Shown here piece by piece: positions 4,701-51,526 of a stretch of DNA of 54,099 bases. This stretch comes from a virus. Taxonomy: Duplodnaviria; Caudoviricetes. Where the stretch lies: positions 1-54,099 of IMG/VR virus record IMGVR_UViG_3300006737_000043; one strand, 5' to 3'. The notes under the pieces were generated by a model. It was not told the origin of the DNA, searched no databases, and saw only the letters and a list, made by a program, of their open reading frames with translations. Made by a program: the position numbers and the translations under genes. Position 1 is the first letter of the stretch; each line of letters starts with the position of its first letter.

Positions 4701-4765
4701 CCAGTAGAGGACCTGATCGGGCAGGTAATCCGCGGTCCGGCTATTTTATCTCAACAAACCCGTAG
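1730..4765 (+). CDS. Large virion cargo/ejection protein (1011 aa)
   Basis: Long, acidic, Cys-free ORF in the cargo-gene block upstream of the vRNAP; no catalytic motif recognised. Confidence 0.65.
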   Translation: MADLTTNAVTPSVISYTPLDLSRVQARLGSKVQEVEGAAAAGRNLISALDFKDGYMLAGQAKDLQNEYSGKIQGLVDGLYNTGDTRSFTADLSLLSNQINTDERILAGQKDFELSKVHDQYGIDPTKRGFYYKYTSDNSPTGNIAAADWKNQDYTRDDVNSFYQIFPEEDLYRDYNDKFENLNTAKFEEFMGMDPNGFLVFKTTQGPSELPQTIADIVAAGGTQAEAVAAYLKETNGPLYRELASDYDKGGKDSAINYRDGRGIGREQFIGEVVLENLPYLEDVSFDLQTPSGTGSGGGGNTVKPPAVTPVQTETLATVLDQGVASELLEAGDLSIKDLTSVLGFGADSQGTTDMMTILADPEANRRDIANAGYYTSILADWNDNGDPTYSNVFTNGNELKAAADEATLELLNTTFEATRRDLSPQSNTSYQPAAGFEGAQKSFISVYGDIIGDQDPVEFFHKIRNTRNLLGQFDASGFNLENKDELISAYDGYLQNPSLANQLTFGVGFLSPDEFAAVLNRQGEEAYTVQLTGLDGQFEGYSNLGEALNRYEKASNYFMGNIRPVGALTPELQLYNKINRNAPFLNMEAQMSELRETSPIAFYEAARIDIMNRSQLYHTDVILQPGSLQRSEGIIEEGTKQFSESLAPSIVDGEIGADFGANWTISKFLKTPTGGATGMKDAGVESPRVSIIKGDAVIESPYEEMDLTARNTTAVLKNFINSSSDNTDVNEGAGDFIFQGLIVPNGQTSEVGLVFSHRQANGGVESYIFTPKNQTALENNPLVQSMDLTQKTLAGKQYLPQVMTGDAYLGMYGEEINNMLSENVDLYGITAEYVWSDTKASLSNTELFNPLETFRDTDVPNPYFDGNTSVVADIAGGSEIYRFRRKDGTGDVRWSEYLEGFAENPDLASTYLGVSDYEGFLVSVLLNKDQINDAGGNVTDEAIMGLLQSTTMPNLKGISEALGTEWGLLTNIPITFNDTSEAFHHFAGQSSRGPDRAGNPRSGYFISTNP

Positions 4766-4845: not shown

Positions 4846-5352
4846 ATGGCAGACTTTACTTTACCTGCTAGAAACTCAAATACAGTATTTAATCCTGCTG
4901 ACTTTGAAAACGCAGGTAAAGCTTGGGTATCTGCTAATGACCATACATTTGTAAATAATTCTGATTACTCTAATTTATTTTGGAGCACTGGTATTGAAAG
5001 AGCTCAACAGATCTACAATACAAACATAGTTAGCTTACCTGCAACTAATGAAGCAGGATTAAAAATACTAGATAAAGCAAACAGATGGAGTGCAGCTAAT
5101 GGCTTCAATGTAAGAGTAAGTAGTATGGCTAGACCACAAGCTGTTCAAGACTTTATGAGAGAACAGCCTAGAATGATGGGAACAGCTGCTGCTATGTCTA
5201 AGCATAGAGTAGGTGCTATCGATCTTGATTATGTTAGAAATTCGGACGGAAGTATTAATCAAGCTAAAACAAACGAGCTAAAAACATACCTTAAAAATTT
5301 CTATAAGGTTATTGATCATGCTGGCCATATTCATGTTTCTCCTAGAGTTTAA
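4846..5352 (+). CDS. Peptidase M15-like (Hedgehog/DD-peptidase fold) zinc peptidoglycan hydrolase
   Basis: Motifs SMAR, SKHRVGAIDLD and HAGHIHVS resemble the M15 Arg, His...Asp and HxH signature; His-Asp spacing is one residue shorter than usual. Confidence 0.7.
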   Translation: MADFTLPARNSNTVFNPADFENAGKAWVSANDHTFVNNSDYSNLFWSTGIERAQQIYNTNIVSLPATNEAGLKILDKANRWSAANGFNVRVSSMARPQAVQDFMREQPRMMGTAAAMSKHRVGAIDLDYVRNSDGSINQAKTNELKTYLKNFYKVIDHAGHIHVSPRV

Positions 5353-5364: not shown

Positions 5365-8300
5365 ATGCCACAACATCCTACATCTTCTCTCCCTACTATA
5401 AATCAGGGAGATCCTTCTGATCTTACTAGACCTCCTAGGGGACAACAAGTTAAACTATTTGAATCAAAGATAACGCCGCCAAGTTTAGAGGGACCCCAGC
5501 TACCTGCCGGTATGGTCCAACTAGATAGAGCTCCTGGTCAAGTATTCAATAGAAACCCATTTAACTCAATTATTAATGCTCCTAAAATTACAGGAACTAC
5601 TGGGTGGCTTTTTGATATAACAAGGGCTCGAGCGGACAACAGGTATACAGCAGATCCTAATAATGCAATAGGAAACGTAGCAATAGGAGGAGTAAATGTA
5701 GCTGACCCAAGAAAGAGAGGACAGAAAAATCAACAGCAGTTCTTCAATGATAATATGAAGATCTGGGAGACAGGAGCAGATAGAGCTAGAAATGCATTAT
5801 TTGGAGGAGCTCTTCAGGGTATAAATAGAATTGGAGAGGATCTAGGAGGAATACTTGGAGGATCTTTCTGGGGAGAAGATTTTGAAAGAACTGCTATGGA
5901 GAGATACTTTGCTAATGCAAGGGGCACCTACGATCAGGCAGTAAAAATCTATGATGAAGATGCAAAGTTTTATCAAGGCCTACAAGCTGTTACTGCATCT
6001 ATAGTTGAGTTTGCACCAGTTGGAGGAGCAGTTAATAAGTTTTTTAAGTACGGAGGTAAAGCTGTAAAATATGTAGGAGCTGGTATTAAAACAGGACAGT
6101 GGACAAAGAGAGGTACGCAAGCTATTCAAGCTGCAAAAGTAGCTGGCCAAAGTACAAGAGTATCTTCACAAATTGCAGCAAACACTACTAAACTAGGAAA
6201 CTTTTTTAGAAAATATCAAAACCCTCTTAGCCAACTAGGTACTGCTGTACCTGCTGGTATTGTACAAAATAGAATTGAGGGAACTGCAATGGCGCTTCAG
6301 ACATATGAAGAAGTCCTTGACAAACTACAACCTGCTATTGCAAATGGTGACTTAACATATGAACAGGCAGCTAAGATAGCAGCACAAGAAGCACAAGGTG
6401 TTAGAGTTAAGAACCAAGCAATGATGGTCCAAGACATCTTTCAACATGCTACTTTGTTTAGAGCACGAGGACTAACAAGAACCGGATATCAGCGTCCTGG
6501 GTTTACTTGGAATCCAAAACAATATTTAAAGAATGCATTCCAAAGTAGAAAGTCACTATGGAATTATGGTACAAATAACTTCATTGTACAGGGAATAGGA
6601 GAGGCACTAGAAGAAGGATTCCAGTCTGGTATGCAACAAGATGCAGTAAGAAATGCACAGTTTGCTGCTAGAGATATTATAAGAAGAGATGGAGGAGATG
6701 TTACAACTATACCGGTTGATAACATAGGACTGGCTACAAAAAAGAATGTAGTAGACAGATACTTAGGATATATGTCTACTGATGATGCTAAGTTTGAGAT
6801 GGCTGTTGGTTTCTTTGCCGGTGCTGGACAAAGAATGGTTCAAAGCTATTCTGAGAAGATGTTTGATAACCGTGCTTATAGAAAACTAACTAACCAGATT
6901 GAAACTTTAAAGAGAGATTTACCTGCAGGAACGGATCAAGAGAAAGCTTATAAGCAACAGAAGATTGCTGAGTTAGAATATAAAAGAGCAGTTACTACAG
7001 AAAAAGGAAGAGCAGAGGCCGCTACAGAATTAATAAATACTCTTAAGTCAGATACTGCAAACTCAATTAAGTTTGCTATGGAAACTGATGATCTGATTGA
7101 GGCAGCAAGAGAGAAAGGATGGGGCCATATTGTTGAAGGTATGGAAAAAAATGCATTCTATAATCTATTTATGAAGCATGCAGCTAATGGTACAGTAGAT
7201 CAGTTAGAGAGACAGCTACAAGCCATTGCAGACGGTACTTCTACCTCAGCTGCTTTCCCAGAAGATGGCTCTCATCAGGAGAAAGCAACAGAGTTTTTAA
7301 ATGAACTAAACGAACTAGAAGCGGACTACTTAGCTCTTCAAGGTATGGAAGGCGCCCATAGGATTATGGGACTACAGTTTGCTGCAAAGACTAATCAACG
7401 AGTTGTAGACGGAGCACTGAAGGCTAGGACAAAAGCAAAACAAGATATCATTGATGATCTTAGAGCTTTATCTGGATCACAGGCTACAACTATCGAAGTA
7501 AACGAGGAGACCGGAGAGGTTAAGGTAACAGATAGTCTAGGAAGAAATGTACCTATATCTAGGAAATTACAAAAAGCAATTGAGTCATCAGATGCTTACA
7601 AGGCTATTTTTGATGAGGGAGGATTCAATGATCAGATTGATGCTATTAAAGATCGTGTAATAGAAGATAGAGCTAAGCTCTCTGATATGATTACACCTGC
7701 TGGTCAAAGTAAACTTAGGAAAGAAAGAATCGAGTTTGAGAAAAAGATTGAACAAGCTCGTAGAAAGGCTAAGCAGAAAGGACGTCGTCAGCGTAGAAAT
7801 GGAAAAACTCGAGGACAAAGAGATGCTTCTAATATAGATAATCAAAGAAGAAAAGCAGAGAACTCTCAATCGGAAGCTAGTGTTACAGGTGATACTGTTG
7901 AAAACGGGGCTACATTAGAAAATGACCCAGATAACTTACAACGTGAGGCAACTCCAGAGGCTACCATTGAGGAGCTAAAAGAGGCAGCACAGGGAACTGA
8001 ATCAGCTCCAGAGACAGATGTAAAGTCTGATGCTGAGATACAAGAAGAAGCTGACAAGGACTTTGACCCTGCGTTGGATAAGCCTGAGTATGGCTATACA
8101 AGAGGCACAACTTCTAATGTAAATAAAGTAGCTTCTCTATTAAGAGAGTGGAATGCATCAGTAAGTAACGGTATAGTTACAATTGATAACGCTGAGTTCA
8201 ACTTTATTGATGGCTATATGGCTCTTGCAGATCCTAGTAGGATACAAGAGGGAGACGTCCTAGAGTTTCAGATAGTAGAAAATGCTGATGAGTATGAGGT

Positions 8301-11300
8301 AACTGATGTAAGTGACCTAGACGAAACCAACCAAGGTAAGAAAAAAACAGTAAAAGAAGCTAGAGCTAATAAGAAAAGTTTAGCAGAACATGAATCTGAT
8401 GTATCTCAAACAGAGGTATCAGAGGATCAGATAGAAAATGATCTACAGCCTATAAAGATTATCCATGTATCAGCAGATGGTACTAGAACTGAAATAGGTT
8501 TTGTCCATAGCCCTCTATACCAACGAGAGGCTAGAACAACTAGATCTGCTGCAGAAATAGCACAGGATAAGCAAAAGCTTAGAGAATTCCGTGATAGGCT
8601 GCTAGCTGGCGAGGTTACACAAACTCGTATTTCTTCTATACAACCTGTAGTTTTAAACTATGTAGACTCTTCGCAAAGACAGACTACTAGAAATACATTC
8701 AGCGGAGTACTAGAGGGCCCTAGCGGTCAGTACCATATAGCTGTAGCTAGTGGAGACGGACAGCTATTTGTAAAAGGTGGAGCTAGTATTAAGTCTGTAA
8801 ACGGTATAGGCCGTAATAGTGTTATCGTAAACCAAGATAAAATTAAGGCAGGTCTAGCTTACGCAGTTGTACCTCTTAAGAAAGACAAGAATGGTAATAC
8901 ACATTACTATGCTGCTCCATTATTAACTAGAAACGTATCAGAGAATAACGTTGAGGTTATGATGACTGCAATTGATGCTTGGATTGCAGGTGAACAAGTC
9001 CCAGGTCTAAAGTCAAACATGACCGAAAGAGAGGTAAGAAATCTTAAGACCGTACTAAAAAGATTTATTAGAGTCCGTAATACAGATAGTCTGCCTCATA
9101 AACCAGGACAGACATACGTATATACAAAGGTAGAGGGAGGACGAGAGTTCTTAGTGTTTGGTAAAGTTCTTAGTGAGCCCTCAGAGGGCAACTCAGGAGT
9201 TTACGAAGTTACAGTTGAGAAGGGTGCCCCTCTAGCTACAGAGAATCAAGAGTTTATCAGACAGGTTTTAAAAGACCAAAAGTTAAATATAGACTTTGAT
9301 AGTGTAGAAAGTAATGAGCACTTCTTCTCAGTAATAACTGAAGGTAAGGTAGAGACTAATAAGAAAGCACTCATAGACCATGTTATGGACAGCACCTTAT
9401 CTACTATCGCTCCTATCAGAACAAATGAAGGTGCACTACCAAATGGTAAAGTTATATTCCACTATAATCCAGATGTTAGATATGGTGAAGGTATACCAGG
9501 ACTTTCGGAAGAAGATGCTCCTCCACTTAGAGCAGACGGTACTGGAGATCCTGAGCTTAAAGGTAGACGTGCTACAGAAGATACTGATGATGATGCTTTA
9601 CGAGCGCTAGCTGAAGCTGCAGGTATTACTGTAGAACAAGCTCAAGCAAATAGAGAAGATGCTGATCTGCTAGCAGAGGATGAAGACGCTGACTTTGATG
9701 ATACATTTGACGAAGATGATACTTTAGGCCTACTACCTGAAGCAGCTACAAATAGATCTGAAGAAACTAGGCAACAGTTTAGGGTACCTGATATTACTCC
9801 TGTTCAACAAGAACAGATTACTGATTTTATCGCATCTGATATTATAAAGAATATAAAAGTTATTCTTGCAACTACTAAGGTAGATAAGTCAGATGAACAA
9901 GCATTCTCAGAAGCAGTAGATGATAGCTATGCTCAAGTAGTAAGAAACTTAGAAGCCCTGGTAGCAAGAACATCAAAACGATTAGCGGCAACAAGAAAAC
10001 TAAAAGCAGGCGATACAGCAGCTATTACTAGGCTTGAGACTAGACTTAAGAAAGCTAATGAAACTTTAGAAGCGGTACGAAAGAGCGAAGATAAGATTAT
10101 TAATCTTTCGTTAACTAAACTAGAACAAAGATCAGGTGTAACTAAAAAGGCAAAACGAACTCAACAAGCGAGTCCAGCAGAACAGCAAACACGTAGCGCT
10201 GTAGATAAGCTATTTAGTTCCATATTCGGTAAAGACAAAACTTCAAAGATAGAAGATGCTGAGTCTGAGTCTGATGAAAATTCAGGTGAGTCAGCTCCAG
10301 GTATAAACAAGAGCTACCACTCTGACAACTTCTACTTTACTCTAGATCCTATAGATACCGCATCATCTCGACTAAGAGACTCTCTATCAACATTAGTTGA
10401 GCTAAATGAAAATGGGAATATATCAAAAACATTCTTTGGCTCTACTAAATATGCTGACCCCAACCAGGTGTTCAAGATTCTATCTACTGCTTTAGAGGGT
10501 ACTAATCCTATCTTCTCAGAGCAGATGGAAGCGTTGATGAGAAAGTATTTAGCAGATAGAGGATTTAGAAATAAAGCTTCTTGGCTACCTGCACTAGTAG
10601 TCACTGCTACAGAACTAGAAAGCTTAGAAGCTAGTCCCATAGGACAAAAGTTCTTAGAGACTATATTCCCTGATATGGATTCTAGAGCAGAGCAGATTAA
10701 AAGTCTAAGAGATCAGAAGATTAGTCCTCAGATTATTAATGAGTTCTCATCTGTTATGTCAAAGCATGCACTCATAGCTCCTATCATATCAATTCAAACA
10801 GGGTCAAATGGACAAGTGTATGTTAATGCATTTAGCCAGAACAGAAACTCACTTGTAAATATTGTAGGAGAAGAGTTTGATCTTGGTATGAGAGACAAAC
10901 TGTACCTATATGATTCTACCACAGGCGACTACGTTATTAATGAAGAGGCCTTTGATGAGGCTATAGCATATCTAACTAGTCTTGCTAATGCTGGAGGAAA
11001 TGTAAACATGGCTGAGTTTGGAGTTATGATGGAGACTAAGCTAGGTATCAAACTATCTGAAGATACTATAGAGTCTCTATTTGAAGACGGCATATACCTA
11101 CAGACATCTGCAATGGCTCGTAGAGTTAAGATGACTGATAATGGTATGTGGGGTAACTTCTCTCCATTTACTATTATGCGTGAGCATTTAGAAGCTATAA
11201 AGAACAAAGGCATAGCATATTCTACAAAAGGCCCTACAAACTTCGGTGCAATTAAAAGACTTGTTAATCTTGAAGCTAATAGATCAGAGGCTAAAAGACA

Positions 11301-14300
11301 TGGTACCACATTCTATGCAGGCGGTAGAAACATTGCTACTATGACATCTAATAAATACTTTAGTAATTTACTAGATGAGTTATTTACATTACAAGAAGAT
11401 CCTGAGAACCCAGAGTATGTAAATAAGATAGTAAATAAGGCCCATGCTTTATTTAATACTGTATTTGAGAGTCCTTCTCAACTACTAACAGCTATACAGC
11501 AAGAAGAGATATCACGAGAGGATTTAGAAATCCAATACCTAAACTTTAACCCTCTAAAGAAAGGTAGTGATAGATCTAATGACTTTAAAACTTTAAACGA
11601 AGCAGAGCATGCTGCCGTAAAGAACGGTCTTATGACTCACTCTACTAATATTAGTTCTAGAAACTTTACTACAAACTCAGGACATGTATTTAAACAGAGA
11701 CAGGCTACAATAGTACCGCTAACATTCTCTGATAAGGATACAGTAATGGCAGTTAAGACACTGGTGCCTATCATGAAGTTTGATGGTGTAGGTAACATAA
11801 CAAAGGAAACAGTATCTCTATTTGTTGACCATGTAGTAATGTCAGAGATAAATAGAATGCGAGCATTCGCCGCTGCTAATATTACAAAGGACTCTGCAGA
11901 TGAAGATGTTACACAGACTGATTTAAACAATCAAGCTTTTGAAGAGGGTGCGGATCTATTCTACATGTTCCCTCAGCTAAATAATGTTAGTGTAGAGTTT
12001 GAAGGAGAAACGTTACCTCTTAGAGAAGCAGCAGCTGTAGCAACTGATGAGCAGCTAGTTGAGCTTATGCCTAGAATTAATGACTCGGTAAGATCTATTC
12101 TTGATGCTATGATCGATGATAAGGTAGAAGCATTTGATTCTGGAGTAGAATTATACAGTGATATTCCTACAGCATATAAGAGTATGATTAGCTCTGAGAG
12201 TAAGATAGCTAATCCAACAGAAGAACAGCTAAAGAGGATGGTAGCCGCAGATATTACCCTTAACCAGGCGCTTGGAACAGCTAATATGATCCAAACTATG
12301 GTAGGAGATCCTGCTCAATATTACAAGGCTCCTAAGCTTGATCAGCTTGTTGATGAAAAAGCATACATAAATGCCGCAGTTCGTACTACCTACGAAAACT
12401 TAGATAAGAGACTTGCTGCATTGATTGCACCAGGTGTAGAACCTTCTAGACAATCAGACAATGAAGAGTACATTCAGCTTATGGTTCCTGATATTGAAAT
12501 GGACTATGACGCAGAATTCTTCGAAGGGTTGCCCGATGATGCTATAAATAACTTTAAAAACATCGAATCTACCGATGCCCAGGAGTTTATTACATGGAGA
12601 GAGTATCTAGATAATGCCATATCATTTGGTGAGATTACTCAGCAGACTGCAGATCAAGTAGCTACTTTAATTAATAAGTATAATAGAGGGTATGTGCTGA
12701 AGCCACAGGATAAAGAATTACTAAGCAAGGTAATGTTCAAGGCACAAAAGCCTGTCGGAGTTGCTGACCATTATACTACTCTAAATGCTACGGGACAGAC
12801 TGTAAGACAAAGAGCTTATATTAAAACATCTGCTGTACCATTACTACCTATGTTTACTAAAGGTACACAGCTAGATAACTTAAGAGTGGCAATGGAGACA
12901 TTCCAAGAAAACATGGGTACCAATGTAAGACTTACATTTAAGTCAGGGGCTAAAGTTGGATATCCTGCTGCTTCTAAGAATGCATCTCTAGTAAACGCAG
13001 ACGGTACAATCAAGACTGTAGAGGAACTTACAGCTGCATTCAAAGGCACTGAAGAAACAGGACGTCCTTACATCCGTGTTAAAAGAAAGTACTGGAGAAT
13101 ACAACAGTCTATACCTACTAAGACTAATGATAAATCAACAAGAGGTACACAGCCAGACGCTCTCATCGGAGGTGCTGCTAGCCAGGTAGATGCCCTTAAA
13201 CCATTAGTACAAAGTTTTAGTGATAACTCTAATAAACTATTTGAGCTTAGAGCTAATGAAATTAGAGAAGAGCTAATGGAGGATCACCCTGATCCAAATA
13301 ATAGTACTAAAGTTGTTAATAGAGAGAGATTAGGAGAGCTCCTACGTCAGGTAGCTTTTGATAGAGGCTTTGACTTCAATGTAGTTGAGGGTCTTACTAT
13401 CGGCGAAGACGGACAGTTTGAGATACCCGCAGAGCTATCACCTGCATCAGAGCAGTTCCAATCTATGCTGATGGCTATTGCTCGTAAAGGTGTAGCTAGA
13501 AAGAAAGTTACAGGCGGGTCTCAGGTCTTGATGTCTGAGTCTATGTTTAGATTCCAAGATGATATTAAGGAGGGTCGTTCTGAAGTTTTATATACAGATA
13601 AGTGGGAAGGCAGTCTGAAGCCAATGAGAATAGAAAATGGAGCTGTACAGCCTGCTCAGATCTTAGTACCTAATAAGTTTAGAACACCTAGTGGTAAGGT
13701 AATTAACTTTAGAAAGTATGTAAACTCTGAAGGTAGAATTGACTTATCTAAACTACCAGAGGGAGCTCTTGAAGGTATGGGATTCCGTATTCCTACTCAA
13801 GGCTATAACTCTATGGCAGTTGTAGAAGTTGTTGGATTCTTACCTGAGTATATGGGAGACATCGTAGTTGCTCCTAGATCATTCGTAGCACAGATGGGCT
13901 CTGACTTTGACGTTGATAAGCTGTATGACTACTTCTTTAAGATGGAAGAAACAGATGGAACGTTATCTAAAGTTACTGGAGAAGATGAACTAGGATTACA
14001 AAATGCAATACTTGAGGATAGAATTAGTATTCTAAAGAACACAGATGTATTCAATATGATCAAGAAGCCTCTTGACTTTGGATTACATACAGGTGTAAGT
14101 AATTACACTAATGAAGCTGACCCAGAGATGGCAGCTGAGATTAATGCCGCAGGTGGAATGGCTAATGCTATTGCAGCTAAGAAGGAGAAAAGAAGTAAGA
14201 CAAAAGGTGGCTTAATATCTGAGTACTACCAGAGAAAGAAATACCTAGAGGCAAGATCCGCAGCAGATGCGGTAGGTGTCAAGGCCACACTTAATGCTTT

Positions 14301-17300
14301 TGTAGGGGTAATATCATCTACAGATAAATCAATTGGATTACAAGAAGGATTTACATTTGGTAAGGAAGCACAAGTTGGAGCAATTGAAGGAGCTACTACA
14401 CTACGTGGTACTCGTCTAAAACAAGAAGTAGTATCTGGTACTCTATCAGCAGCGGTAGATAACCAGAAAGAACAGGTCATCAATAAGTATAATCTTAATA
14501 ACGAAACATTCGGTGTCCATAGTGCTCTAGAGCTCATGGGCTTTGAAGAAGACTTCACACAGTCATTCTTAGAGCAGCCTATTATTGTAGCAGTAGTAAA
14601 TCATGTACAAGAGAATGCATATGCTTCAATGGGTAGAATACTTAATGTTGCAATAGACGGCTTAATAACTGAGCACCTCAAAGACTCTGGGAGAAAGATT
14701 ACTGAGTTAACCAAGGAGGAGTATTTAACTGTAATGCAGGAAGTAGACCGTGTATTCGAAGCTGAGTTTGGAGATCTTACTATGGACGAGGTAGTAGCTA
14801 AACTATACAATAATATAGGTAAGGGGGTAAATAATACCTCTCCTCTACTAAATGCAGCTTTGCTTATGAAGTTTAAACAGGCTAGACAAATAATGTCTGA
14901 GATTAGACCTGTTATGCAGATCATGAGTGGAGATGCTAAAGGTGTTGGTTCTACACTTGCGGCCTTTATTGAAGAAACAGCAGCATCTGAGCAAGTAGTA
15001 GCAGGGCAACAACGAGCAGTACACAAAAGCTCACTACTAGGGCTACTGGGAACATATAGATTAGTAAGCTATCGTGATATTACTGGAGTAAATAAACTAC
15101 AAGAACAAGGATTTATTAGAGGACCTCTTACAAGTGAGGGCTATCTAATGGTTAAGCCTGATAGTGCAAAAGTTGCAGCATCTCTTCATACCTTCTCCCT
15201 TACTAATGACTTAGTTCTATCTGAGTTTAGTGGTCTATTCCAACTAACAAATAAAGTAGCAAGATCATCTTCAATGAGATCTATAGGTGTTGAGAATAAA
15301 AAATCTATTGGTCAGGGGATTAGAAGTTATCTTAACAGTAATCCAGAACTCTTTACTGAGAACGAAGTAACAACAACTTTAGATCAGCTACTATATCCAA
15401 GTGATACATCTGCTAGTTTAGCACAGATAGTAGATATTGCAAAGAATGATCCAAGACTTGCTAATAATAAATTCATACAGAACTTAGAAACAAGAACTGA
15501 TGCCGGACGTCCTCATACGTTAGCATTTAGAAACTCTGCAAGTGATGATATGGTTACTGACGGAGAGGCTGTTGCATTCTTAGACTTACTATTATCAAGC
15601 AGCACAAGGCCTATTAGAAACTCTAACCTAACTCCAAAGGAACTAGGTAGAAAGCTAATTGATTATGCATTCCTTACTGGAGGTACGAAGTCAGCGGTTG
15701 ATTTTGTAAGGTTTGTACCAACTAGTTATCTGATAGATATAGGGTTCTTCCAAAAATTAAAACAAGGATATAATTCTACAAAGACTGAAGAGTCTCACGG
15801 ACTATTAATACAAGAACAGCTCTTACAACATAACCCAGATATGGTTATGCATAGAGTTCGTCTAAGAGCACAGGGAGATGCAAAAGAAATTGTTGTTTTA
15901 AATAGAAAACAATCAGATGCTTCTAATGTTGTATTTGATCCTTCTAAAGAATTAATGGAAAAGGCAGGAATTCAGGTAGGAGATAAGAGTGTATTTGTAG
16001 TTGACCCTTCATATGAGTACATAGCAATTAAGCCGGCAGGAAAACCAAGAAGAGTATTAAAGTTTGATAGGTTCAGTGGTAAGTATGTAATGCTGGATAA
16101 CTTAGGCACAGGAACAATTAGTGAGTATAAATTTGGATCTGTTGGAACATCTAACATTGCTGAAAATACAGCAGCTCACTATCTAAGAACTACGGAAACT
16201 GGAGCTCCTGCTGTACAAGAAGGCGACCCTGGCTTTGCATTAGATGAACTAGATCCAGCAAGGCCTCTCCCAGAAGTAACAGGGCCTACTCTGCAAAGAG
16301 AAGCTACTGCTCCATCTAAAGTAGAAGACTTAAGACGAGCATTTAACAGACCTGAAGCGGCAGACCCTAATGCAGCTCCGTCTGATGATCTTAACGTAGC
16401 AGGATCTCCAGTAGATATGGAAGGAGAAAATGCTGTAGAAAATATACCAGAACCTACAGTAGAAGATCTATCAGAGTTATTTAATGCTGGATCTCCTACA
16501 GTCAAGCCTATTACTGCCACAGAGAGTGAGCAGGAACAGCTACCGTCTTTGGCTAATGTAAATACAAAGCTAAAGGAGAGTGCTATCTATTCTCCAACAG
16601 ATGCTGAAGTTATACAGATGTTACAAGAGATATCTCAAAGTTCTGATATGGCACATAAGTACTTAGCTATGGAGATACTAGACTCAGGCATCTTAAATAA
16701 AAAGAAATTTAAGATAGTATTTAAGCCTGGTAATGTTACTGATTCAACATTTACAAAGAGTAAGAATCAGGTAGTTATCAATGTAGATCCATCAACTAGC
16801 AACTGGAACTTTGAGCAAACATTCCTCCACGAGGTAGGCCATGCTTTAACAAGTCTTGAAATTAAAGCTTATCAAACTAATAAGAATAATTTAAGGAATA
16901 AAGCACTAGTAAAATCTTTGGATAAGCTAGACACTCTTCGTGAGTTATTCTTTAGAAAACTAGAATCTAAGAACCCTGATCTGATAGCAAACTTTTTATT
17001 ACTGACGTCCTCATACGAAAGCACTGACCCTGCTGCAGATAAGGAATTGAGAGATAAAATAGCTGTAATGCAAGCTGAAGGAGATCTAGAAGGCATACAA
17101 AAGCTTCTCTATGGAGCTTACGGAGCTACCAATCTAGATGAGTTTGTTACTATGGTTATGAGTAATCAGAACTTTAGAGACTTACTAGATAATACGGTTG
17201 ACTTTAATCTAACAGACGGTACTATTGATAAGAGCTTCCTGACTCAGATCATGGAGGTACTTAAGGATATGTTCCGCCAGGTCTTTGGACTTGAGCAAAG

Positions 17301-17997
17301 AAAGATATCTGACTATGCTCTAGAACAAGCAATGTTTGTAGCTAAGGAGAAGGCATATAGCCCAGCGCCGGTAGAGAAGTCGATGATAGTGAAAGTAAAT
17401 AATGTTCAATATGAGATAGACTCCTCTTCTAATGTTTATAAGATTGAGCCTACTAGAGTAACTACGGTTACAGACAAACAGCTACTACAGAAAATTGAGC
17501 TGAGGGCAGCACTACAGAAAGAAAACCTGAGCAAGGTCCGAGAAGGCGACAAGACATTCTATGTGTACGAAGGCTTTAACCGAATCAAGGTAGCATCAAT
17601 AAGTCCAAAAGGTATTGTAACTGCCATCACTGGTAAGGAGGCTGACGCAGTAATCGCTAAAGCATTCAAGAACTCTGACAGTATCATTACAGGAGAAAAA
17701 ACTACTTCTCCTACTCAAGAAATACAATATGACAACAACACTTATGTTGTGGATATTGATAGTCGTACAATTACAAATAAAAAGACTGGTAAAGTAATTG
17801 TTGCTACATCTCCAATTGGAACAGCAGTAATGAATCAGGTAGATTTTGATACATTAGAAGAAAGCGATACCAATCGTTTACTACCTTTGCAAGGAACTGT
17901 AAGTGAGTTCTTACGAGAGCTACAACCTGCAGAAAGAAAACTATTTAACAAGCTAGCTAGCGAGGGACAGCTAAAAACAATTTGTAAGACAGTATGA
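5365..17997 (+). CDS. Virion RNA polymerase polyprotein (crAss-like two-barrel RNAP plus C-terminal zincin metalloprotease), 4210 aa
   Basis: RIPTQG and GSDFDVDK (DFDVD at nt 13903, aa 2847) are characteristic of crAss-like vRNAP. HEVGH (nt 16828, aa 3822) with downstream NLDEF is zincin-like. The N-terminus is Gly/Ala-rich and amphipathic. Confidence 0.92.
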   Translation: MPQHPTSSLPTINQGDPSDLTRPPRGQQVKLFESKITPPSLEGPQLPAGMVQLDRAPGQVFNRNPFNSIINAPKITGTTGWLFDITRARADNRYTADPNNAIGNVAIGGVNVADPRKRGQKNQQQFFNDNMKIWETGADRARNALFGGALQGINRIGEDLGGILGGSFWGEDFERTAMERYFANARGTYDQAVKIYDEDAKFYQGLQAVTASIVEFAPVGGAVNKFFKYGGKAVKYVGAGIKTGQWTKRGTQAIQAAKVAGQSTRVSSQIAANTTKLGNFFRKYQNPLSQLGTAVPAGIVQNRIEGTAMALQTYEEVLDKLQPAIANGDLTYEQAAKIAAQEAQGVRVKNQAMMVQDIFQHATLFRARGLTRTGYQRPGFTWNPKQYLKNAFQSRKSLWNYGTNNFIVQGIGEALEEGFQSGMQQDAVRNAQFAARDIIRRDGGDVTTIPVDNIGLATKKNVVDRYLGYMSTDDAKFEMAVGFFAGAGQRMVQSYSEKMFDNRAYRKLTNQIETLKRDLPAGTDQEKAYKQQKIAELEYKRAVTTEKGRAEAATELINTLKSDTANSIKFAMETDDLIEAAREKGWGHIVEGMEKNAFYNLFMKHAANGTVDQLERQLQAIADGTSTSAAFPEDGSHQEKATEFLNELNELEADYLALQGMEGAHRIMGLQFAAKTNQRVVDGALKARTKAKQDIIDDLRALSGSQATTIEVNEETGEVKVTDSLGRNVPISRKLQKAIESSDAYKAIFDEGGFNDQIDAIKDRVIEDRAKLSDMITPAGQSKLRKERIEFEKKIEQARRKAKQKGRRQRRNGKTRGQRDASNIDNQRRKAENSQSEASVTGDTVENGATLENDPDNLQREATPEATIEELKEAAQGTESAPETDVKSDAEIQEEADKDFDPALDKPEYGYTRGTTSNVNKVASLLREWNASVSNGIVTIDNAEFNFIDGYMALADPSRIQEGDVLEFQIVENADEYEVTDVSDLDETNQGKKKTVKEARANKKSLAEHESDVSQTEVSEDQIENDLQPIKIIHVSADGTRTEIGFVHSPLYQREARTTRSAAEIAQDKQKLREFRDRLLAGEVTQTRISSIQPVVLNYVDSSQRQTTRNTFSGVLEGPSGQYHIAVASGDGQLFVKGGASIKSVNGIGRNSVIVNQDKIKAGLAYAVVPLKKDKNGNTHYYAAPLLTRNVSENNVEVMMTAIDAWIAGEQVPGLKSNMTEREVRNLKTVLKRFIRVRNTDSLPHKPGQTYVYTKVEGGREFLVFGKVLSEPSEGNSGVYEVTVEKGAPLATENQEFIRQVLKDQKLNIDFDSVESNEHFFSVITEGKVETNKKALIDHVMDSTLSTIAPIRTNEGALPNGKVIFHYNPDVRYGEGIPGLSEEDAPPLRADGTGDPELKGRRATEDTDDDALRALAEAAGITVEQAQANREDADLLAEDEDADFDDTFDEDDTLGLLPEAATNRSEETRQQFRVPDITPVQQEQITDFIASDIIKNIKVILATTKVDKSDEQAFSEAVDDSYAQVVRNLEALVARTSKRLAATRKLKAGDTAAITRLETRLKKANETLEAVRKSEDKIINLSLTKLEQRSGVTKKAKRTQQASPAEQQTRSAVDKLFSSIFGKDKTSKIEDAESESDENSGESAPGINKSYHSDNFYFTLDPIDTASSRLRDSLSTLVELNENGNISKTFFGSTKYADPNQVFKILSTALEGTNPIFSEQMEALMRKYLADRGFRNKASWLPALVVTATELESLEASPIGQKFLETIFPDMDSRAEQIKSLRDQKISPQIINEFSSVMSKHALIAPIISIQTGSNGQVYVNAFSQNRNSLVNIVGEEFDLGMRDKLYLYDSTTGDYVINEEAFDEAIAYLTSLANAGGNVNMAEFGVMMETKLGIKLSEDTIESLFEDGIYLQTSAMARRVKMTDNGMWGNFSPFTIMREHLEAIKNKGIAYSTKGPTNFGAIKRLVNLEANRSEAKRHGTTFYAGGRNIATMTSNKYFSNLLDELFTLQEDPENPEYVNKIVNKAHALFNTVFESPSQLLTAIQQEEISREDLEIQYLNFNPLKKGSDRSNDFKTLNEAEHAAVKNGLMTHSTNISSRNFTTNSGHVFKQRQATIVPLTFSDKDTVMAVKTLVPIMKFDGVGNITKETVSLFVDHVVMSEINRMRAFAAANITKDSADEDVTQTDLNNQAFEEGADLFYMFPQLNNVSVEFEGETLPLREAAAVATDEQLVELMPRINDSVRSILDAMIDDKVEAFDSGVELYSDIPTAYKSMISSESKIANPTEEQLKRMVAADITLNQALGTANMIQTMVGDPAQYYKAPKLDQLVDEKAYINAAVRTTYENLDKRLAALIAPGVEPSRQSDNEEYIQLMVPDIEMDYDAEFFEGLPDDAINNFKNIESTDAQEFITWREYLDNAISFGEITQQTADQVATLINKYNRGYVLKPQDKELLSKVMFKAQKPVGVADHYTTLNATGQTVRQRAYIKTSAVPLLPMFTKGTQLDNLRVAMETFQENMGTNVRLTFKSGAKVGYPAASKNASLVNADGTIKTVEELTAAFKGTEETGRPYIRVKRKYWRIQQSIPTKTNDKSTRGTQPDALIGGAASQVDALKPLVQSFSDNSNKLFELRANEIREELMEDHPDPNNSTKVVNRERLGELLRQVAFDRGFDFNVVEGLTIGEDGQFEIPAELSPASEQFQSMLMAIARKGVARKKVTGGSQVLMSESMFRFQDDIKEGRSEVLYTDKWEGSLKPMRIENGAVQPAQILVPNKFRTPSGKVINFRKYVNSEGRIDLSKLPEGALEGMGFRIPTQGYNSMAVVEVVGFLPEYMGDIVVAPRSFVAQMGSDFDVDKLYDYFFKMEETDGTLSKVTGEDELGLQNAILEDRISILKNTDVFNMIKKPLDFGLHTGVSNYTNEADPEMAAEINAAGGMANAIAAKKEKRSKTKGGLISEYYQRKKYLEARSAADAVGVKATLNAFVGVISSTDKSIGLQEGFTFGKEAQVGAIEGATTLRGTRLKQEVVSGTLSAAVDNQKEQVINKYNLNNETFGVHSALELMGFEEDFTQSFLEQPIIVAVVNHVQENAYASMGRILNVAIDGLITEHLKDSGRKITELTKEEYLTVMQEVDRVFEAEFGDLTMDEVVAKLYNNIGKGVNNTSPLLNAALLMKFKQARQIMSEIRPVMQIMSGDAKGVGSTLAAFIEETAASEQVVAGQQRAVHKSSLLGLLGTYRLVSYRDITGVNKLQEQGFIRGPLTSEGYLMVKPDSAKVAASLHTFSLTNDLVLSEFSGLFQLTNKVARSSSMRSIGVENKKSIGQGIRSYLNSNPELFTENEVTTTLDQLLYPSDTSASLAQIVDIAKNDPRLANNKFIQNLETRTDAGRPHTLAFRNSASDDMVTDGEAVAFLDLLLSSSTRPIRNSNLTPKELGRKLIDYAFLTGGTKSAVDFVRFVPTSYLIDIGFFQKLKQGYNSTKTEESHGLLIQEQLLQHNPDMVMHRVRLRAQGDAKEIVVLNRKQSDASNVVFDPSKELMEKAGIQVGDKSVFVVDPSYEYIAIKPAGKPRRVLKFDRFSGKYVMLDNLGTGTISEYKFGSVGTSNIAENTAAHYLRTTETGAPAVQEGDPGFALDELDPARPLPEVTGPTLQREATAPSKVEDLRRAFNRPEAADPNAAPSDDLNVAGSPVDMEGENAVENIPEPTVEDLSELFNAGSPTVKPITATESEQEQLPSLANVNTKLKESAIYSPTDAEVIQMLQEISQSSDMAHKYLAMEILDSGILNKKKFKIVFKPGNVTDSTFTKSKNQVVINVDPSTSNWNFEQTFLHEVGHALTSLEIKAYQTNKNNLRNKALVKSLDKLDTLRELFFRKLESKNPDLIANFLLLTSSYESTDPAADKELRDKIAVMQAEGDLEGIQKLLYGAYGATNLDEFVTMVMSNQNFRDLLDNTVDFNLTDGTIDKSFLTQIMEVLKDMFRQVFGLEQRKISDYALEQAMFVAKEKAYSPAPVEKSMIVKVNNVQYEIDSSSNVYKIEPTRVTTVTDKQLLQKIELRAALQKENLSKVREGDKTFYVYEGFNRIKVASISPKGIVTAITGKEADAVIAKAFKNSDSIITGEKTTSPTQEIQYDNNTYVVDIDSRTITNKKTGKVIVATSPIGTAVMNQVDFDTLEESDTNRLLPLQGTVSEFLRELQPAERKLFNKLASEGQLKTICKTV

Positions 17998-20900
17998 AGA
18001 GTTGCGGAATAACTAATATAGCAGATCCTATTTTATCTGACCTTATCGCTAAGTACGGAGCTCGAGAGGGCTTCCAAACTTATTTTAAAGTCAAGGAGCT
18101 AAACCTACCAGAGACTACTATTAGGAATAAGTACTTACCTAACAGTGTAGAGAGAACTACAAATGTAACTCGTAAGATTGACAGAGCAGACAAGCAGCCA
18201 TCTTTGAATGGTACTACAATGTCAATTGAGAACCAGCTGGGTCTTCTACAGATGAAGACAGAAGACGGCAAAGTATCTGCTTACTATAAAACATTTAATA
18301 GTAAAACAGCCGCAGCTAAAAAGACAACAGAGTTACGTAAAGAACTAGGACGTCGGGGTCTAATTAAAAACTACGAAGTAGTACAGCAACAGACACCTGA
18401 TGGATTTGTTGTTAGACTAAGGCCTGCTATTACATCTACAGCAACTGATGACGTAAGTAGGCTGATCCCAGAAGCAAGCGCTCCTCTAGTAAAAGCTCAG
18501 CAAGAAAAATTAAGAGTACTAAATGCTAGACAGAGAGAGCTAAAAAATTTATTACCGCAACTATCTGTAACAGAACAAGCATACGCAGACACTGCTAAAC
18601 AACTATCTGATACCGAGCAACTTATAAAAAAAACGGAACAGGATGTTCGTAGGTTAAAAGAACTTGATACGGCGGATAAACTATTTGAAAGAGCCGCACA
18701 GGATGAAGCATGGCTTGCAGACTTTTTTAGAAAGGGTACATATACTTTTGATGAGCTGCAAGAGGCGATCATTAAGTTTGATAGCTGGGCAGTAAGTGCT
18801 GTATCACCGGGTAAACCACATCCATATCTAGACAATCTAGAACAGCAGAATCAATTCTTAGTAGATAAGATGAACAACATCTCTACAAGAATAGCTAGTA
18901 GATTTGGAAGCATAATGGAGACCCGAATCAGGGAAGCAGTTATTGCATCTACTAGAAAGCACTCTAATACGTCGGAACTCACAGATGCTGAGATTCTAGA
19001 AACATTGCTAGAACAAGATAAAGGGGCCCTAGCTACAGCAAGAGCATATACTCTAAACTTGGGTAAGCAGCAGCCGATCATTATGCAAGCATTGTTTAAC
19101 AATGTAAACAAGGCAAATAACGATGCACACAATGCAGCGTTCAACCGTATCAATAAACTAAAAGAAGCAGCTCAAGGTCTTAGACAAAGAGACATGGGTG
19201 CATTCTATCAAAGAGATAGTCAAGGACGTCTGACAGGTGAGTTACTACAACCTGCAACAGCAGAGTTTATAGATGAACTACGTGAGATTCAGGGTAAGCT
19301 ACAATATGCATTACTAGAACTAGAAGTTGCAGAGCCTGGATCACAGGATGCCAAGAGAGCTCAAGCTATTAAAAATAAAGCGCTAAAAGAAAGATTCGCA
19401 TTCTTCAAGCAGAAGGTAGCGCCGATCAATCTATCTCCATTCGTAGCTGATATTTCTAGTTTCAATGCAGAACAAATAGGACTACCTACTGAGATATTCT
19501 CAGATGAAGATGCAGATCCAGGTGAAATAAGAGCTGAGTTAGAAAAAAGATTTGGTAAAGCAGAGACTAACCGTATGCTACGTAGACAGAAAGCTATGGC
19601 CAATACATTCATCCATGAGAGAGATGCATTAATAGCAGATCTACTTGGATCAAAAGATAAACTCAGTGACCAAGATATAGCACTAGTCAAAGCATGGTCT
19701 GCAGAGAATTCACCATTCTTAGCATACAGAGCTCATACAACTAATCAAAGTGTAGGGCCGTCAATACCTTCATTTAAATACACATTGTCTGTACCAAATG
19801 AGGCATCTTCAGATGAGAACTACAGAGACATGGTAGAGACCTATCCCGCACAAACTGAGTTCTATGATATTATGGTAGACTTGATTGAAGAAGGTAGAGC
19901 TGAAGTTGGAGACATATCAGGATTTATAACGGGTCTAAGCTTACCTGTAATGCAAGCTGGATTCTTTAAAGAGATGGCTAGAGATGGTGTAGGCATGTTA
20001 CTGCCTAAACTAGTTGATACGATGAGGTTTGCTACAAGTATAGCTAATGAAGAAGCATATCAACAGCCTAATCTACATGAAGATGTTGACGGCATAGTTA
20101 ACAGAAAAGAAGTTAACGTTAATGCTGTTACTAGTCACCGTGTAAGTAAAATGGTAAACGAAGAATTAGCTAGACTAAAATCAGAGTTTATTGCCGAGAA
20201 CGGGGAAGAAAAACTAACACGAGAAGTCATTGCGGATCTTAAGAAGACTGCAACAGACAATGTATATACTAAGTCATCTACTAATCTGGTAGGACTAATG
20301 AGTATGTTCGCACTTAATGTGCAGACCATCAAAGCTAAAAGATCGATAGAGCCACAAGTACAGCTTATCAAAAACTTTATAGTAAAAGGAGAAACCAAAG
20401 CAGGGGCACTAAATCAAAGTGCATCAGTAAAAGCAATGGACTACTTCCTTGACAAAGAGTTCTTTGGTATCGACCCAGGAGACAATGTAGGTAAAGGAGG
20501 AGTAAAGGTTAAATCTAGAGAAGAGAAAGAACAGGCCAAAGCTATACAAGAACGTCAGTTAGATGTAGATGAGAAGATCGCAGATCTAGAAGCTAGAGAA
20601 GCTGCGGGAGAAATTCTAAGTCAGCCTGAACTAGATGAGCTAAATAATCTACGTGAAGAAGTAAAAGACTTAGATAAGCAGCTTGATAAGATGGGTAGAT
20701 TCTTTAGAATATCTAAGATCGGAGATGCTATGTTAGGATTGACCCAGTTAATCGGTATTGGATTCTCTCCTGTATCTGCAACAGGTAACGTTGGAATAGG
20801 ATACTTTGCTAATCAGATAGCAGCTGCAGACGGTAGAGACTTTTCTGCAGGTAGCATGGGAAGAGCATACGGCTACATTCTAGGAGGTAACACTGTAAGG

Positions 20901-22244
20901 TTCTTTACATTTGGAAAACTAGACCGTATTGTTTCTAACCAACATAGAGATAAGATTAGAAACTTAATTGATGCTAACCAGATGGTAACATCAATATTTG
21001 ATGAGATACACCATAATACTAGCAAGCTGAATGGCAAGGAAAAAGGTTTTATGAGAGCTTCACACTTAATGGAACGTTCAGAGTTTGTAAACCAAGCGGC
21101 CGTTATGGTAGGCATGATGCTAGATACAGAGATAACTCTAGCTGACGGAACTACAATGAACCTGTATGAGGCTTATGACTCAGAAGGTAATCTACGTGAA
21201 GACATTAAAACTTATCAAACTAAATCTGCAAAAAGCGCAAAACCATGGGACGAGAGTGAGTTCTTCCAGTATGTAAAACATATTGTAGAAGAAACACACG
21301 GTGACTATAACCATAGTGTAATGTTGAAGAAGACGTTCCTGGGTAGATCACTGTCTACATTCCGTACATGGATGTATAGAACATATGCGGCTAGATACTC
21401 ACCTGAGCACTATGACTCTATTGCTGGATACAGTAGAAAAGGTAGATACAGATCGGCAGCACCTCTCCTGCACCTAGTACCTGGTATTAGCAGTATCCCT
21501 ATCTTATCAAAGTTCTTACCTCCAATAGTTGTAGCTGGATCAGGGCTAGACGTAGGACGTCTCATCCCAAAATCAGCTAGAGAAAAATTAGGTTTAAAAG
21601 AATCTAAACAACAACAGGACCTAGTATCTAGTTTAGGCAAAGTACTTAAAAACTCTGTAGGCATCTATGGAGATTTCTTTAAAGCAATCTTAACGCCGCA
21701 TAAGTATAAGACTAAGTTTAGAGAAAGACTAGAAGAAAGGGGTCTATCAGATGTAGACACTGCAAACATATCTGCAGTATTCTCAGAGTACTTTATGAGG
21801 TCGATGCTAGCGCTTACTATGTTACTACTATATAGCTTATATGATGACGATGATGATGAAGCTAAAAAGAAAGCAATCATAGTAGCAATGAACTTAGGCC
21901 GTAGATTTGAAAGAGACCTTGCATTCTATACTGACCCAAGTGAACAAGGACGTACGCTTGATCAGCCTCTACCAGTCATGAGATTAGTAGATGGTTATGA
22001 AGGATTCTCTAGATCGATAGAAAGAGTAATGGACGGTAGTAAAGATCCATACCTGCAGTCAGGATTCTACGAAGGATGGTGGGCTCCAACTAAAATGGCA
22101 TTTAGATATTTACCCGGTCTAACAGCAGTTGACCAGACAAGAAGATATTTAAATATAGACGTAATGTCAGGGAATACTATATCAGATAAAAACGATTTGT
22201 ACAGGGCATTCGAGGATAACCTAGCAATGCCGGATCAAGATTAA
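17994..22244 (+). CDS. Large virion cargo/ejection protein (1416 aa)
   Basis: ATGA overlap with the polyprotein; coiled-coil rich; HGDYN...FRTW segment and a C-terminal hydrophobic helix (MLALTMLLLYSL), typical of large ejected proteins. Confidence 0.75.
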   Translation: MKSCGITNIADPILSDLIAKYGAREGFQTYFKVKELNLPETTIRNKYLPNSVERTTNVTRKIDRADKQPSLNGTTMSIENQLGLLQMKTEDGKVSAYYKTFNSKTAAAKKTTELRKELGRRGLIKNYEVVQQQTPDGFVVRLRPAITSTATDDVSRLIPEASAPLVKAQQEKLRVLNARQRELKNLLPQLSVTEQAYADTAKQLSDTEQLIKKTEQDVRRLKELDTADKLFERAAQDEAWLADFFRKGTYTFDELQEAIIKFDSWAVSAVSPGKPHPYLDNLEQQNQFLVDKMNNISTRIASRFGSIMETRIREAVIASTRKHSNTSELTDAEILETLLEQDKGALATARAYTLNLGKQQPIIMQALFNNVNKANNDAHNAAFNRINKLKEAAQGLRQRDMGAFYQRDSQGRLTGELLQPATAEFIDELREIQGKLQYALLELEVAEPGSQDAKRAQAIKNKALKERFAFFKQKVAPINLSPFVADISSFNAEQIGLPTEIFSDEDADPGEIRAELEKRFGKAETNRMLRRQKAMANTFIHERDALIADLLGSKDKLSDQDIALVKAWSAENSPFLAYRAHTTNQSVGPSIPSFKYTLSVPNEASSDENYRDMVETYPAQTEFYDIMVDLIEEGRAEVGDISGFITGLSLPVMQAGFFKEMARDGVGMLLPKLVDTMRFATSIANEEAYQQPNLHEDVDGIVNRKEVNVNAVTSHRVSKMVNEELARLKSEFIAENGEEKLTREVIADLKKTATDNVYTKSSTNLVGLMSMFALNVQTIKAKRSIEPQVQLIKNFIVKGETKAGALNQSASVKAMDYFLDKEFFGIDPGDNVGKGGVKVKSREEKEQAKAIQERQLDVDEKIADLEAREAAGEILSQPELDELNNLREEVKDLDKQLDKMGRFFRISKIGDAMLGLTQLIGIGFSPVSATGNVGIGYFANQIAAADGRDFSAGSMGRAYGYILGGNTVRFFTFGKLDRIVSNQHRDKIRNLIDANQMVTSIFDEIHHNTSKLNGKEKGFMRASHLMERSEFVNQAAVMVGMMLDTEITLADGTTMNLYEAYDSEGNLREDIKTYQTKSAKSAKPWDESEFFQYVKHIVEETHGDYNHSVMLKKTFLGRSLSTFRTWMYRTYAARYSPEHYDSIAGYSRKGRYRSAAPLLHLVPGISSIPILSKFLPPIVVAGSGLDVGRLIPKSAREKLGLKESKQQQDLVSSLGKVLKNSVGIYGDFFKAILTPHKYKTKFRERLEERGLSDVDTANISAVFSEYFMRSMLALTMLLLYSLYDDDDDEAKKKAIIVAMNLGRRFERDLAFYTDPSEQGRTLDQPLPVMRLVDGYEGFSRSIERVMDGSKDPYLQSGFYEGWWAPTKMAFRYLPGLTAVDQTRRYLNIDVMSGNTISDKNDLYRAFEDNLAMPDQD

Positions 22245-29759: not shown

Positions 29760-29771
29760 TAGTATTATAGA

Positions 29772-51508: not shown

Positions 51509-51526
51509 CAACTTAAGTAGATTATC

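Follow-up and report, generated by a model that had tools for sequence, protein, structure and literature searches.

The locus described here raises the question of why two giant phage proteins that are otherwise free of cysteine should each keep a single one, placed at the two ends that face each other across the junction of their genes. The locus lies in a stretch of 54,099 nucleotides (nt) of viral DNA (IMG/VR record IMGVR_UViG_3300006737_000043, positions 1 to 54,099; the whole stretch is called the window below), which is part of a marine crAss-like phage. The two proteins are homologs of a Crassvirales module represented by phi14:2 gp67/gp66/gp65 and crAss001 gp47/gp50/gp49, whose parts are named here A (gp47-like), B (polymerase) and C (gp49-like). 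With a slash marking a break between chains, the module is encoded as A/B/C, AB/C, A/BC or ABC, and the window has the form AB/C. The depletion of cysteine in ejected phage proteins is already known; the new element is a cysteine pair that marks every split point of the module. Judged from sequence comparison, it is rather likely that these cysteines connect the products of the separate genes head to tail through a thiol bond (most probably a disulfide), so that they would be packaged and ejected as one thread.

Two cysteines across one gene junction

The features on which the argument depends are listed with their window coordinates (lengths in amino acids, aa).

49..1719, plus strand: cargo-block protein of 556 aa, no cysteine (weak PHROG match only; no Pfam match)
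1730..4765, plus strand: cargo-block protein of 1011 aa, no cysteine (open reading frame (ORF), computed cysteine count)
4846..5352, plus strand: cargo-block protein of 168 aa, no cysteine (ORF, computed cysteine count)
5365..17997, plus strand: the 4210-aa giant AB, comprising a gp47-like part, the virion RNA polymerase and a C-terminal extension; single cysteine, Cys4207
5377..7413, plus strand: A-type N-terminal region, aa 5-683 (profile of 24 AB N-termini)
11923..13962, plus strand: two-barrel RNA polymerase core, aa 2187-2866 (PDB 6vr4_A, the phi14:2 gp66 crystal structure, expectation value (E) 7.8e-20)
13903-13917, plus strand: DFDVD catalytic motif, aa 2847 (motif match, of the form DFDxD)
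16828..16842, plus strand: HEVGH (HExxH, zincin-like), aa 3822, in the C-terminal extension of AB (motif match only, no Pfam match)
17878..17994, plus strand: 39-aa C-terminal tag of AB, LLPLQGTVxEFLRELxPAERxxFNxLxxEGxLKTICKxx (19 invariant columns)
17983..17985, plus strand: Cys4207, TGT, fourth from the C-end of AB (...KTICKTV)
17994..17997, plus strand: ATGA stop/start overlap of the AB and C genes (the same in L001-L003; TAATG in L004)
17994..22244, plus strand: the 1416-aa protein C, of the crAss001 gp49 / phi14:2 gp65 family; single cysteine, Cys4
18003..18005, plus strand: Cys4 of C, TGC (MKSCGIT...), in a predicted disordered N-terminal tail (TGT in L004)

The five plus-strand genes between nt 49 and 22244 contain two cysteines in 7361 aa (0.027%), compared with 109 in 8914 aa (1.22%) for the remaining 32 ORFs of the window (binomial P ~2e-36). 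The first-pass annotation, made from the sequence alone, had described two cysteines facing each other over a gene junction with an ATGA overlap, and both statements were confirmed, the computed cysteine counts along the five genes being 0, 0, 0, 1 and 1. Base composition is not the cause of the scarcity, because the two remaining reading frames of the cargo genes are rich in TGT and TGC (e.g., 1, 41 and 255 occurrences in frames 0, 1 and 2 of the 4210-aa gene). By simple arithmetic, the joint chance that one cysteine falls amongst the final 4 of 4210 residues and another amongst the initial 4 of 1416 is ~3e-6.

The label of vRNAP (virion RNA polymerase) polyprotein, given earlier to the 4210-aa protein, proved right, as a phi14:2 gp66-like core with the DFDVD motif is fused to a gp47-like N-terminal part. 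The A profile, built from the 24 AB N-termini, matches the N-terminal part of crAss001 gp47 (E 1.3e-20), crAss002 gp32 (E 1e-53) and a 2018-aa protein of Rudgehvirus (E 1.6e-59). A tblastn search with the polymerase matched 136 crAss-like phage records, the best of them Flavobacterium psychrophilum phages at 26% identity, so that no cultured phage is close to the window. For C, a profile restricted to close relatives (A1) failed to detect gp49 or gp65, and a broad profile of 60 stand-alone C proteins, drawn from the 106 described below, matched Fpv1 gp34 (1.5e-63), crAss001 gp49 (5.3e-54) and phi14:2 g065 (1e-44). The same family also forms the C-terminal part of ~4100-aa proteins of gut crAssphages, and the C-family profile matched no solved structure. 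Amongst the five proteins of the block, Pfam searches gave no match and PHROG searches nearly none. The 556-, 1011- and 168-aa proteins upstream have no detectable relatives among the phages compared, and they are labelled cargo by position only. Homology and gene position suggest that the window module is carried in the virion and ejected into the host; for the phi14:2 and crAss001 counterparts, the evidence comes from proteomics. In published annotation, the zincin-like domain is placed in different module members in different phages.

The arrangement is preserved in the close relatives of the window proteins. When 11 database homologs of C (45-97% identity) were aligned with the window protein, the start MK(K)[SI]CGI was present in 11 of 11 rows with an intact N-end (query included), and its cysteine was the only one in 10 of these 11; the twelfth row is truncated at the N-end and has no cysteine. 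All three database homologs of AB (4311-4859 aa; 50-83% identity in the last 500 residues) have exactly one cysteine, fourth from the C-end. The junction itself was seen in four metagenome loci, with an ATGA or TAATG overlap and either TGC or TGT as the codon of the N-side cysteine. Besides the 39-aa tag of AB, some 50 N-terminal residues of C are conserved in the window clade, and His7 of C is present in only some of its members. Searches of a phage collection with the junction region, as DNA and as protein, gave no match, and IMG/VR scans with the C protein, the C alignment and P0086 found no relatives.

Ahead of the 39-aa tag, about 80 aa are diverged and unalignable even among close relatives, and in one relative the end of a UvrD-like helicase domain occupies this stretch. 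Superfamily 1 (SF1) helicase Pfam domains (AAA_30, AAA_19, UvrD_C_2) were observed just before the cysteine tag in many relatives of the giant AB (P0015, P0016, P0164-P0167 and others; L003 5636-5995); in such relatives, a helicase would be ejected alongside the polymerase. The window AB has no helicase Pfam match, yet carries the same tag. Candidate cleavage motifs had been proposed on either side of the junction (at aa 4168 and aa 153, where the sequence reads LEESD and ATDD), with the idea that the region acts as a removable assembly tag; the motifs are unsupported, the sequence upstream of aa 4172 not being conserved in close relatives, and the tag idea likewise, with no indication of cleavage.

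Cysteines at the breaks between chains

Every cysteine of the module was listed in 15 public crAss-like records from five virus families or genera (Fpv1, phi14:2, Rudgehvirus, crAssphage ZA, crAss001, crAss002, IAS virus, cr6_1, cr110_1, cr127_1, cr273_1, cr52_1, cr1_1, cr3_1 and cr109_1), taken from the 136 matching records. Fourteen of these entered a count of chain termini together with the window, giving 15 chains; the IAS virus was left out, as runs of N break its B gene. Amongst the termini that face a junction, 33 of 34 have a cysteine no more than 9 residues from the end, compared with 0.39 expected if the same cysteines were placed uniformly, while none of the 30 outer termini has one (Fisher p = 2e-17). 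Cysteine frequency is far below that of other phage proteins, at 0.132% over the 15 chains (and 0.095% in the 106 stand-alone C proteins). The conservation of terminal cysteines in related phages, which the first-pass annotation had named as a check, extends down to ~25% protein identity and across Crassvirales families.

The layout varies between groups (AB/C, as in the window, in Fpv1 and the Suoliviridae; A/BC in the Intestiviridae and Crevaviridae), and the position of the cysteines varies with it. In phi14:2 (A/B/C), g067 has one cysteine, as its last residue (...NTIC), g066 has two, at residue 3 (MAC) and second from the C-end (...QECK), and g065 has one, at residue 3 (MSC), so that a pair is present at both junctions. 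The same holds for the three separate genes of crAss001, where the sole cysteine of gp47 is third from the C-end, the 2412-residue gp50 has Cys 5, 1334 and 2404, and gp49 has only Cys 5. The gp47 gene of crAss001 lies on the strand opposite gp50 and gp49, 11.6 kilobases (kb) from the start of gp50, and the genes at the junction are separated by 29 nt in Fpv1 and by 144 nt in Rudgehvirus. Because the genes may be on opposite strands or separated by gaps, the cysteine pattern is not a by-product of a DNA signal at the gene junction. All four termini of the IAS virus also fit the rule; in its record (L012 14970-15010), the runs of N split the polymerase gene into two coding sequences (gp055 and gp056), which read together have Cys 5 and a cysteine third from the C-end.

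Across the module proteins, 2-5 residues precede the N-side cysteine and 0-8 follow the C-side one, which is found at position -1 to -5 in 66 proteins and at -9 in crAss001 gp50. The flanks are not conserved between lineages, save for a tendency to lysine; 65% of the 55 proteins with a residue at +1 of the C-side cysteine have lysine there, and 57 of 66 have lysine or arginine within 2 residues of it. These positions yield an annotation rule, in which an N-side cysteine at position 3-6 marks the true start of a B, BC or C gene and predicts whether there is a partner gene. In crAss002, crAssphage ZA and cr110_1, BC was read from an internal methionine (MSC...), a choice of the analysis that affects 3 of the 34 termini. 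The annotated starts lie 14-32 codons upstream of this Met-SC (L011 14317-14420, crAss002 gp33; L009 11875-11945, crAssphage ZA; L014 14086-14135, cr110_1). By the N-side cysteine rule, the internal methionine is probably the true start, and the three public records appear to have mis-set starts. The ZA record also gives non-ATG starts (I...) for several neighbouring genes.

Database proteins were surveyed in two samples. A C-family profile search of 1.84 billion representatives gave 583 matches, of which the best 150 were analysed. Stand-alone C proteins were represented by 106 sequences of 1000-2300 aa that start with M (19 shorter or non-M rows were left out), and 94 of them have a cysteine in the first 6 residues, at position 3 in 43, 4 in 26, 5 in 18, 6 in 5 and 2 in 2; their median cysteine count is 1. 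The 25 longer proteins amongst these best 150 comprise 11 of the ABC form, none with a terminal cysteine and 9 with no cysteine at all, 8 BC fusions, each with a cysteine at position 3-6, and six unplaced proteins without cysteine (2 probable ABC, 4 probable fragments). The second sample, independent of the first, consisted of 107 polymerase-bearing proteins of 2315-7368 aa and the query, 108 in all, classed by the A and C profiles as follows.

AB: 39 proteins; cysteine at the N-end in 0, at the C-end in 39
ABC: 16 proteins; N-end 0, C-end 0; 13 have no cysteine in 4923-6493 aa
B alone: 26 proteins; N-end 25, C-end 20
BC: 15 proteins; N-end 13, C-end 0
Core far from the N-end, no A match, without C: 9 proteins; N-end 2, C-end 8
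Core far from the N-end, no A match, with C: 3 proteins; N-end 0, C-end 0

Departures from the rule number 12 of 108, of which two begin with L and one is marked in its source as partial. An IMG/VR scan with P0160 found only one relative, 27% identical, which fits the rule and leaves the absence of cysteine in P0160 itself unexplained. Intein-type Pfam matches (Hint and homing endonuclease: PF05203, PF05204, PF14528) occur in the giant polymerase proteins P0195, P0209 and P0236, where inteins may account for some of the extra internal cysteines. The Suoliviridae records L013, L016, L017 and L020 have up to 70 in-frame stops per late gene under table 11 (recoded stops), and standard gene calls on such genomes would cut the giants into pieces without an N-side cysteine, a likely source of some exceptions in the databases.

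The dependence of the cysteines on chain breaks was also followed on a phylogeny of the polymerase core built with FastTree (107 rows), on which each fusion state changed at least 15 times. At the A junction, cysteine tracks the split state in a mean of 6.8 of 11 phylogenetically independent pairs and shows no difference in 4.2; at the C junction, it does so in a mean of 7.4 of 8 pairs, with no difference in 0.6. The opposite direction was never observed at either junction (median sign-test p = 0.016 for each). The absence of terminal cysteines where the genes are fused, a further check named in advance, was borne out by the ABC proteins of both samples. Each partner has one conserved cysteine, present depending on the partner being a separate chain.

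A candidate link between separate chains

Because the cysteines occur only at ends that face a separate neighbour, never at outer ends and not in full fusions, and because the fusion states have changed many times, the pattern fits a cysteine pair that stands in for the missing peptide bond. The restriction to split ends also rules out DNA-level signals and any role that every form of the module would need (e.g., catalysis, portal attachment or membrane anchoring). On this reading, Cys4207 of AB and Cys4 of C would form one interchain disulfide in the assembled particle, joining AB and C head to tail into an unbroken thread that would correspond to the one-chain ABC polyprotein of relatives. 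The thread would be packaged and then ejected with one polarity (N-to-C), each piece after the previous one, and the reducing host cytoplasm would cut the link and free the pieces. The purge of all other cysteines would keep the pairing unambiguous. Mutual bonding, its disulfide nature, the timing of its formation and breakage and a role in ejection are what the reading proposes in addition to the observed pattern. Somewhat more tentatively, the module may form a 'pseudo-polyprotein' of more than 5,000 residues, with a redox-cleavable disulfide at each break (C-end to N-end), which serves as a tow-line, every piece pulling its successor through the tail in fixed order, until host reductants cut the chain into active parts. 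If so, fusion and splitting of the module would be freely interchangeable in evolution, as a cysteine pair can replace a peptide bond.

A covalent link is favoured on these grounds, with a disulfide as its most likely form; inter-subunit disulfides are used in the crassvirus tail, the cargo is argued to leave partly unfolded and the suppression of cysteine in ejected proteins is documented. The polymerases of N4-like and crAss-like phages are of different types. In N4-like phages (Schitoviridae: N4 gp50, DEV gp71-73), cysteine is likewise almost absent from the giant virion RNA polymerase and from the partner proteins of its operon, a scarcity that the portions of the source consulted attribute to transit across the oxidising periplasm (PMC11445570). 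The polymerase of these phages forms a single chain, no terminal cysteine is described in those portions and the few cysteines are judged annotation errors (PMC11445570), in contrast to the window, where one is kept per broken end. According to the parts of the crassvirus literature covered, the virions have inter-subunit disulfides in the tail (PMC10172136), and the module proteins are present in virions and thought to be ejected partly unfolded (PMC10172136; 10.1101/2020.03.07.982082). The same passages indicate that the RNA polymerase module and its variable fusion were already known (10.1101/2020.03.07.982082) and that the fused forms have been treated as polyproteins that are 'likely cleaved' (PMC10172136; 10.1101/2020.03.07.982082). 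Terminal cysteines are not mentioned in the passages covered of either paper; the phi14:2 preprint (10.1101/2020.03.07.982082) has no occurrence of cys, disulfide or disulphide, and the accessible text of the Nature paper on crAss001 (PMC10172136) has none of 'cysteine' and seven passages with 'disulfide', on gp57 and the tail. A full-text literature search, subscription-only papers and supplements aside, turned up no description of terminal cysteines in the cargo proteins of crassviruses.

Separate chains held by one cysteine each are familiar from other systems. Di-chain AB toxins have a single interchain disulfide, one cysteine per chain, that holds two polypeptides together across a narrow channel or barrier and is reduced after membrane translocation, cytosolic reduction freeing the cargo. 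Antibody light chains use a C-terminal cysteine, at or next to the last residue, as an interchain link, similar to the role proposed for the terminal cysteine of AB in the window. They differ in that the chains come from a nicked precursor or lie side by side, whereas those of the window would be joined end to end from separate genes, and there is no relation in sequence or fold. Split inteins are alike in having separately encoded halves with a cysteine at the junction, but the window module is without intein halves.

The AlphaFold models are of low to moderate confidence and place both cysteines in unstructured tails, as would be expected for a simple clasp. In the model of the last 120 aa of AB, helices at 89-95 and 98-109 are followed by a floppy tail whose last 4 residues have a predicted local distance difference test score (pLDDT) below 50 (mean pLDDT 52), and residues 1-7 of C are also below 50. 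The multimer check suggested for the two termini, run with residues 1-150 of C and the last 60 of AB, returned the verdict 'weak support' with a score of 0.32, the best of three controls scoring 0.00. Agreement in contacts between the runs is 68% or higher and the partner pLDDT 59 or higher, although no contacts are reported. Of 80 solved complexes, 58 reached the mark, only 7 of the 80 doing so at scores of 0.60 or below; of 110 mismatched pairs, 2 reached it, both in this lower range.

Several points weigh against a head-to-tail disulfide. The complex prediction is weak and the fold models are of low confidence. The comparative tests were passed by the earlier proposal that the terminal segments form a junction chaining separate proteins, which is thereby partly supported; the bond itself, disulfide or other, is putative. 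Synthesis takes place in a reducing cytoplasm and the habitat of gut crassviruses is anoxic, both of which speak against a disulfide, and no thioredoxin-like or oxidase domain was found in 10 cysteine-rich small ORFs of the window. With four terminal cysteines in A/B/C phages, mispairing is chemically possible, and specificity would need a docking step. Exceptions also occur in the sequences. The AB protein of cr273_1 (L016 4744-22128) is the one miss amongst the 34 termini, with its nearest cysteine 50 residues from the C-end. Of the stand-alone C proteins, 12 of 106 have no cysteine amongst their first 6 residues, 8 of the 12 being free of cysteine altogether. Six of the 26 B proteins have no cysteine amongst their last 9 residues. 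Four of the six carry an extra C-terminal domain, preceded by the only other cysteine (or the first of several) at a distance of 108-217 residues from the end, and such an internal C-side cysteine would make a branch and not a strict head-to-tail link. Finally, database proteins are not independent samples, and the pair tests rest on 8-11 pairs.

The location of the C-side cysteine before an added segment recurs in cr273_1, P0187, P0192, P0196 and P0206, where an extra tail or domain comes after it and the distance to the end is 50-217 residues; apart from this cysteine and the N-side one, P0187, P0192 and P0196 have none.

Four other explanations of the pattern were weighed. The termini could be joined by a bridging metal ion, held by two thiolates and other ligands or in a two-chain four-cysteine zinc site as in the zinc hook, with the pieces still held end to end. 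The same comparative evidence applies to this possibility, since it shows the pairing of termini and not the chemistry, and no oxidising step would be needed in a reducing cytoplasm or an anoxic gut. Each side, however, has one cysteine, with no conserved histidine, aspartate or second cysteine nearby across lineages and flanks that share little beyond lysine; two-ligand sites are rare, and the restriction of His7 to some members of the window clade also argues against a metal, which is unlikely. Alternatively, the termini could dock non-covalently with cysteine as a favoured interface residue, or each cysteine could bond a third virion component needed only when the chains are split. In favour of docking, the window clade conserves the whole 39-aa tag and the N-terminal stretch of C beyond the cysteines, and the weak complex signal would fit contact without a bond; but across lineages the cysteine is kept and its flanks are not, and its retention for plain contact is hard to expect of proteins from which cysteine is otherwise purged. 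As for a third partner, mutual pairing better fits the junction-by-junction match in numbers of N-side and C-side cysteines and their absence from the outer ends, which makes both versions improbable.

True peptide ligation (intein-free trans-splicing or a reaction resembling native chemical ligation), yielding a real polyprotein, would use such groups as a cysteine near one C-end and another near the next N-end, and single-chain ABC forms do exist in relatives. The N-side cysteine is nevertheless at position 3-6 and not at 1, no intein-sized sequence is present and natural ABC proteins have no cysteine at the fused junctions, so that ligation is a very remote prospect. In the phi14:2 record, g065, g066 and g067 are each annotated as found by tandem mass spectrometry (MS/MS) proteomics of virions, and the record is silent on whether they are joined. 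That the cysteines are functionless (chance, a nucleotide-signal by-product or scars of gene splitting) has a negligible probability, for although the DNA around the C-side cysteine (AAAACAATTTGTAA) is nearly identical in five window-clade loci, the count of junction termini is far above expectation, the pattern persists with genes on opposite strands or gapped, the N-side codon varies, and the cysteine is conserved at ~25% protein identity and follows the repeated changes of architecture.

Three known cysteine-dependent processes were considered and rejected. A split intein is excluded by the absence of N- and C-intein fragments and by the few residues outside the two cysteines. A lipobox (a signal peptide followed by L-x-x-C) does not agree with a cysteine that comes right after the initial methionine with no hydrophobic leader and is absent from ABC. 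CaaX prenylation would agree with position -4 in the window clade, but not with the spread of C-side positions; the bacterial hosts are not known to have a prenyltransferase.

The proposed head-to-tail thiol link bears on a wider problem. Among the viruses of the human gut, crass-like phages are the most abundant, and the sea also harbours them commonly; how several giant proteins and the DNA pass through a narrow tail is an open question. A clasp between the chains would explain both the purge of cysteine and the frequent fusion and splitting of the module. According to the structural study of crAss001, packing and mutual interactions of the cargo proteins must set the order in which these are ejected (PMC10172136).

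Neighbouring genes and a further terminal cysteine

Upstream of the A gene, five Intestiviridae records encode a smaller protein with a cysteine near the C-end, at a distance of 6-12 residues; it belongs to an R/A-C-G-G motif, after which comes a tail rich in lysine and arginine (L008 665-2938; L011 3622-5295; L009 123-920; L014 2059-2865; L019 4184-5083). This cysteine is the sole one in two of the five proteins, and the window is without a counterpart. The remainder of the window includes the following genes, which provide a tailed-phage context of crAss type.

49317..53968, plus strand: terminase large subunit and portal (phrog_6681, E 1.5e-75; phrog_6547, E 3.1e-87)

A block of replication genes is located on the minus strand. 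On the same strand, at 28491-31979, an rIIA-like gene (735 aa) adjoins an rIIB-like gene (422 aa), both identified by PHROG matches.

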